Shown: positions 480 to 693 of the stretch, in pieces
How the letters are laid out: each line of letters starts with the position of its first letter
Position numbering within the stretch: the first letter of the stretch is position 1
Origin: a virus
Lineage: Duplodnaviria > Heunggongvirae > Uroviricota > Caudoviricetes
DNA: 36,611 nt
IMG/VR virus record: IMGVR_UViG_2874956758_000004
Location: 1-36,611 of that record
Reading direction: 5' to 3' (one strand)
Made by a program: the position numbers and the translations under genes
Notes under the pieces: generated by a model
Seen by the model: the letters and a program-made list of their open reading frames with translations, nothing else
Database searches by the model: none
Told to the model about the DNA's origin: nothing

Positions 480-693
480 ATGACTAAAATGCCAACGGTG
501 CTGTGGATGCGTTAAAGGAAGAATTAACCAGACGCATCAGTAAGCGTTATGACGATGTAGAGGTGATCATAAAAACCACCAGCAACGATGGCCTTTCTGT
601 TACACGCACCGCAGATAAGGATTCTGCAAAAACTTTGTTCAGGAGACTCTGAAAGATACCTGGGAATCTGCTGACGAGTGGTTTGTTCACTAA
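480..693 (+). pseudogene. DinI-family gene remnant, broken by frame changes in A-runs
   Basis: Frame 2 reads [50 protein letters not shown] and a second frame continues [17 protein letters not shown], matching DinI (…AIDALAGELSRRI…ILQETWESADDWFVSE) from memory; stop immediately upstream in the main frame; IS2 end lies 23 bp upstream. Confidence 0.45.

Follow-up and report, generated by a model that had tools for sequence, protein, structure and literature searches.

A prophage dinI remnant beside ipaH in Shigella dysenteriae, interrupted by IS2 and shifted in frame by two single-base deletions

Given that a dinI-like reading frame lies against the end of an IS2 element near the left edge of a 36,611-nucleotide Caudoviricetes sequence (hereafter the window, meaning the whole stretch of DNA analysed), the question is whether this segment is a gene that has lost its upstream region, a gene that only appears to be broken, or the remains of a gene, and by which events it came to its present form. 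The original prediction, made from the sequence alone, described a DinI-family frame that is broken at two A-runs and begins 23 bp from the IS2 terminus, and it proposed both point decay and the loss of the upstream region. We are highly confident that positions 458-693 represent the 3' part of a prophage dinI gene that three separate lesions have inactivated, and that this part is now a non-functional remnant. This is ordinary gene decay of a known kind and not a new feature.

Three-frame translation reveals DinI-family coding sequence at 458-693 of the + strand, split into a 12-residue piece in the frame of 459, a 47-residue piece (NGAVDAL...DSAKT) in the frame of 458 and a 19-residue piece in the frame of 460. 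Together they make up the 3' part of the gene (CDS nt 12-249, less two bases), which closes with the original TAA stop at 691-693, as judged from the frame translation and from alignment with intact genes. The DinI-family frame that had been recognised by eye is genuine: the repaired 82-aa product scores 70.9 bits against Pfam DinI (PF06183; cut-off 24.2 bits) over profile positions 1-63 of 63, and aligns at full length, over residues 1-79, with E. coli DinI (PDB 1GHH; E=1.3e-12). Even the unrepaired 49-aa middle ORF reaches 38 bits against the same profile. The C-terminal acidic helix motif is TWESADEWFV in the repaired product and ETWESADDWFV in E. coli DinI; without the repair, this conserved helix is out of frame. 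The remnant has 95-97% DNA identity to intact genes that 1,555 of 5,426 complete E. coli genomes carry under the annotation 'DinI-like family protein', and it also matches dinI genes from lambdoid and Stx-converting phages, mEp460 among them. The profile score above threshold, the single domain of about 80 aa and the acidic C-terminal helix place the repaired product in the DinI family (PF06183). The IS2 and two -1 deletions leave the window copy with no intact translatable ORF, and it is therefore filed as a DinI-family pseudogene and not as a gene. A tblastn search found no second DinI copy anywhere in the window.

The IS2 end does adjoin the remnant, with its IRL end at window position 457. 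Window positions 1-457 (- strand) hold the right-hand 457 bp, the IRL end, of a full-length 1331-bp element, as identified from the ORF list and from matches to other IS2 copies; the terminus ...GGGGCCAGTCTA ends at 457 and the remainder of the element lies to the left of the window. This segment matches positions 875-1331 of the IS2 copy in the S. dysenteriae locus L004 at 100%, and three other full IS2 copies in the window with 99.7-99.8% gap-free identity, and its E. coli matches are annotated as 'IS3-like element IS2 family transposase'. The insC/orfA frame of IS2 (1-411, - strand) is transcribed away from the dinI remnant. The homology to dinI begins directly at 458, so the gene does not start 23 bp from the element, and the ATG at 480 that suggested this start is the internal codon Met12.

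The other flank of the element shows what became of the 5' end. L004 belongs to CP026831.1 (4,880,735 bp), the chromosome of Shigella dysenteriae GCF_002950055.1 (PMC12679885, PMC9830988), and there the full IS2 copy spans L004 1835-3165 (1331 bp), with ends running from TGGATTTGCCCC... to ...GGGGCCAGTCTA. To its left lie two LexA-type boxes, GAGG and ATGCGTATTGAGATCT|TGGATTTGCCCC, the last part being the IRR of IS2. The left junction reads ...TACTGTATACAAACACAGTGTAGAGGAATTTTTATGCGTATTGAGATCT|TGGATTTGCCCC... and the right junction ...CAGTCTA|GATCTGCATAACC, and at the insertion point the uninterrupted EIEC gene reads ATGCGTATTGAAATCTGCATA. Comparison of both flanks and alignment with the EIEC gene identify GATCT as the 5-bp target duplication, with its left copy outside the window at L004 1830-1834 and its right copy at window 458-462 (+ strand), corresponding to dinI CDS nt 12-16. 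The 1331-bp length, the terminal sequences, orfA/orfB (the IS2 copies in the window carry transposase ORFs of 136 aa and 301 aa) and the 5-bp duplication identify the element as IS2 of the IS3 family. This is a simple IS2 transposition into dinI codons 4-6, after CDS nt 16, with duplication of GATCT. The supposed loss of the upstream region did not occur: on the far side of the clean 1331-bp IS2, outside the window, the L004 sequence retains a promoter with two LexA-type boxes, a ribosome-binding site and codons 1-5, so that the first 16 nt of dinI are displaced by 1.33 kb and not deleted. A search of complete E. coli genomes did not recover the IS2-dinI junction.

Three further full IS2 copies are present in the window, at 4077-5407, 25195-26525 and 30199-31529. 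The first is flanked by a GTCAG duplication, interrupts the tail-fibre/DUF4376 region and is absent from the second S. dysenteriae strain described below; the third is flanked by an AGTTA duplication. The copy at 25195-26525 has unlike flanks, GTAGA and ACACC, suggesting an IS2-mediated deletion or rearrangement. The prophage (3160-36611) is also riddled with IS30-like, IS3-family and IS66-family-like elements. Among these, an IS30-like transposase ORF at 21475-22467 (330 aa) is shorter than the 383-aa copy at 6865-8016, and a 510-aa IS3-family-like transposase ORF at 19953-21485 adjoins and overlaps its end; the region 19953-22467 may represent one IS within another.

The alignment with intact phage dinI homologs that had been proposed as a check was carried out with the genes of EIEC CFSAN029787, phage mEp460, S. 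flexneri SFBU1023 and E. coli ECMA0423, and it locates two 1-bp deletions. At 496-497 (+ strand) one C of codon 17 is lost (CC to C in GCCAAC(C)GGT; GCCAACCGGT to GCCAACGGT), after which the original frame ends at the TAA at 513-515. At 634-636 (+ strand) one T is lost in codons 64-65 (ACTTTTG to ACTTTG, that is TTTT to TTT in AAAAC(T)TTTG; AAAACTTTTG to AAAACTTTG), after which the middle frame ends at the TGA at 650-652 and the conserved 16-residue C-terminal segment is out of frame. The number of breaks was predicted correctly but their position was not: the A6 run at 474-479 and the A5 run at 628-632 are no longer or shorter in phage mEp460, and the deletions lie beside these A-runs, in the CC at 496/497 and in the T-run at 634-636. 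Since both indels are -1, they do not compensate each other; compensating or programmed frameshifting was rejected on this ground and because every homolog is a plain uninterrupted ORF.

A set of 98 dinI loci was drawn from IMG/VR, GTDB representatives, EIEC and mEp460. A full-length, gap-free, intact 82-codon copy is found in 93 of them, and the repaired coding sequence aligns to each without gaps; the two gaps are seen only in the two S. dysenteriae loci. The second of these (L003, GCA_031665835.1) comes from another strain with the same locus, which differs from L004 by 5 mismatches and 1 gap over 6.8 kb and in its IS content. Both strains are identical to the window across 440-1300, and all three lesions, the IS2 and the two deletions, are common to both assemblies. 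The dinI copies beside ipaH in S. flexneri and EIEC are intact. Neither deletion allele has a match in IMG/VR, where the intact allele of the first site is found on 92 contigs. Among GTDB representatives, a search with either allele of the first site returned two matches only (S. flexneri and E. coli), both intact, and no intermediate with one lesion. The point decay that was originally suggested is therefore supported, the two 1-bp deletions being present in two S. dysenteriae assemblies and absent from the 93 full-length homolog copies.

The S. dysenteriae lineage carries other changes at this gene. Three replacements in the window copy, A8T, V42I and A44T, are all G-to-A changes; A8T and A44T are absent from the 93 homologs and V42I is seen in a single one, 72 of the 93 proteins being identical. 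In the displaced promoter beyond IS2 (L004 1753-1834), the -35 hexamer, TTGACA in the relatives, is TCGATG and one base has been lost before the -10 element; should this promoter still be active, its transcripts would run antisense to the IS2 transposase gene. Two CTGT-N8-ACAG palindromes at L004 1759-1805, with 13/20 and 16/20 matches to the LexA consensus, overlap the promoter and are kept in EIEC, S. flexneri and mEp460, whereas here IS2 parts them from the gene body. Box 1 has fallen from 15/20 in the relatives to 13/20 in this lineage, and box 2 (TACTGTATACAAACACAGTG, 16/20) is retained. The paired palindromes would fit SOS control of the ancestral dinI, and the three replacements together with the promoter changes are signs of relaxed constraint. 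Two more CTGT-N8-ACAG palindromes were noted in the window, at 3127 (just after the ipaH stop) and at 29763 (inside a repressor-like ORF), and these are probably not meaningful because chance alone would give about 0.6 in 36.6 kb.

It could be argued that both frame breaks arose in short homopolymers as errors of sequencing or assembly and that only IS2 damages the gene. Both deletions are indeed located in homopolymers (C2 and T4), where long-read assemblies typically err, the deletion allele is found in only two assemblies, both of them megabase-scale contigs, and the 49-aa ORF produced by the frameshifts (503-652) is not on record as an exact protein in any other assembly. Against this, two distinct strains have an identical sequence at the locus and the runs are very short, with 2 and 4 bases. 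Furthermore, there is no indel among the four 1331-bp IS2 copies of the window, which indicates an assembly that is not prone to indels, and ipaH next to the remnant keeps all of its 583 codons intact. The unusual replacements and promoter changes described above are also what is expected of a gene freed of selection. We consider such errors improbable, and even if the frame breaks were errors the IS2 insertion by itself would leave the gene dead.

The inactivated gene has well-defined relatives. E. coli DinI is an SOS-induced protein that binds RecA filaments. It has 81 aa (PDB 1GHH) and aligns end to end with the 82-aa repaired product, and LexA-type boxes are also found upstream of the remnant gene; compared with the chromosomal dinI of E. 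coli, the window gene is a phage-borne paralogue and is not intact. Binding of E. coli DinI to RecA filaments is covered in PMC3121763 by way of its references 27-29. Close counterparts are the intact dinI genes of lambdoid and Stx phages integrated at yecE (mEp460 gp21; EIEC CFSAN029787 WP_001217553.1; S. flexneri SFBU1023), which share 95-97.6% DNA identity with the window, the same position at the attachment site beside convergent tail-fibre genes and the same double LexA-box promoter as the window lineage; in Shigella and EIEC, ipaHd follows the intact dinI as it does in the window. These relatives are 82-codon ORFs, whereas the window copy is interrupted by IS2, lacks two single bases, carries three unusual replacements and has a degraded -35 hexamer.

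A further parallel is offered by the Gifsy prophages of Salmonella, in which a LexA-controlled dinI-antirepressor-irsA operon has been described and its induction by DNA damage shown experimentally (PMC3121763). As in Gifsy, a prophage dinI homologue lies directly behind a LexA box, but there is no room for an antirepressor gene after dinI here, and the window prophage differs in having a cI-like repressor of the S24 type (29421-29942). The Gifsy-type dinI-antirepressor operon was rejected as a model, the conservation downstream of dinI ending about 100 bp past the gene in most phages. IS-mediated and frameshift pseudogenisation are common in the genome reduction of Shigella. The present locus resembles this process in its simple IS insertion with target duplication, its small indels, its non-essential gene and its decaying prophage, and against this general background nothing about it is distinctive; it is a routine example. 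A literature search combining dinI, ipaH and prophage found no papers.

Downstream of the stop codon, a conserved tail of about 100 bp (694-795, + strand) completes the dinI module and ends in a 13-bp hairpin (760-795) that lacks a U-tract. Most phage copies cease to be similar about 100 bp past the dinI stop (47 of the binned loci), with phage matches ending at query position ~337. The fold of the hairpin is weak (overall z = -1.6), and a consensus scan found no intrinsic terminator on the + strand after dinI. Beyond the tail, an intact 583-aa IpaH with LRR and NEL domains is encoded at 1293-3044 on the + strand, co-directional with the dinI remnant, and fits ipaH class 1, also referred to as ipaHd or ipaH1880 (PMC9046306); the EIEC ortholog is annotated as frameshifted. 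Upstream of ipaH, GTATCGTTTTTTTACAT at 1081-1097 agrees at 16/17 positions with the MxiE box GTATCGTTTTTTTAnAG (PMC9769918), and this predicted box overlaps a promoter-like TTTACA-16-TAGGAT, the whole region spanning 1081-1118.

The gene order supports the prophage origin of the locus. In EIEC it runs yecD, truncated yecE, dinI, ipaHd and the DUF4376/tail-fibre genes, and the order is the same at the two S. dysenteriae loci, where IS2 splits dinI; the succession yecD, truncated yecE, dinI, ipaH and tail-fibre assigns them to the yecE lambdoid prophage with class 1 ipaH (ipaHd/ipaH1880). In mEp460, dinI comes after int and is convergent with the tail-fibre gene, so that in the integrated prophage it comes first among the genes inside the left attachment site. 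The window as a whole has the appearance of a single decayed lambdoid prophage, from dinI to the integrase ORF (35469-36611), which reaches the window end. By the look of the translations, it contains tail-fibre fragments, Rz/lysozyme-like genes (9385-10382), DnaB- and DnaC-like replication genes (15464-17739), the cI-like repressor already mentioned and RecT/exonuclease-like genes (32402-33864).

The history of the locus can be outlined from these comparisons. Judging from the intact relatives, the ancestral gene would have encoded an 82-aa DinI-family protein from its own promoter, overlapped by two LexA-type boxes, and would have come directly after the left attachment site of a lambdoid prophage at yecE, as its first gene. 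By homology to E. coli DinI, the protein would bind to RecA filaments and act as a modulator of the SOS response. In this S. dysenteriae lineage, a full-length IS2 has entered the CDS after nt 16 and parts the promoter, the ribosome-binding site and codons 1-5 from the rest of the gene by 1.33 kb, and one C has been lost in codon 17 and one T in codons 64-65. The fragment has neither a start codon nor a ribosome-binding site before it, and the C-terminal helix needed for RecA binding is out of frame. Such a fragment would be non-functional DNA in neutral drift, presumably kept only through its position between IS2 and the selected ipaH (class 1/ipaHd) cassette.

Two other ways of reading the remnant need to be considered. 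The loss of the prophage DinI might have been non-neutral, a proposal that draws on the geometry of the locus as its sole support and that we regard as very unlikely. In one version, removal of an extra SOS-induced modulator of RecA might have been pathoadaptive in S. dysenteriae; in the other, the LexA-controlled promoter, whose -35 hexamer is degraded in this lineage, might drive antisense transcription of the 3' end of the transposase gene of IS2, and if this were true the activity of this IS2 copy would be coupled to DNA damage. That the remnant keeps a function, either as a truncated DinI-like peptide such as the 49-aa GTG ORF or as a cis-regulatory element or 5' leader of ipaH, is scarcely credible: its residual DinI profile score and its co-directional position 600 bp upstream of ipaH speak for it, but the 49-aa ORF has no conserved C-terminal helix, recognisable ribosome-binding site or promoter, the adjoining IS2 end is the IRL with the transposase transcribed away from the remnant, the + strand ORF out of IS2 stops at 485-487, orthologous loci retain an intact dinI instead, and ipaH has its own MxiE-box promoter region and, as class-1 ipaH, a conserved upstream block of about 618 nt, and therefore does not need the dinI sequence.

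The reading that we prefer, a dinI fragment inactivated three times over, has a direct consequence for annotation. The locus is properly described as one IS2-interrupted dinI pseudogene with its 5' end 1.33 kb to the left and two frameshifts, and not as a 5'-truncated gene; beyond annotation its importance is little. The three lesions could be used as lineage markers, and the locus marks the left boundary of the decayed, ipaH-carrying lambdoid prophage at yecE in S. dysenteriae. For Shigella, it provides an example of an effector gene, ipaH, that is kept intact while the surrounding phage genes decay.
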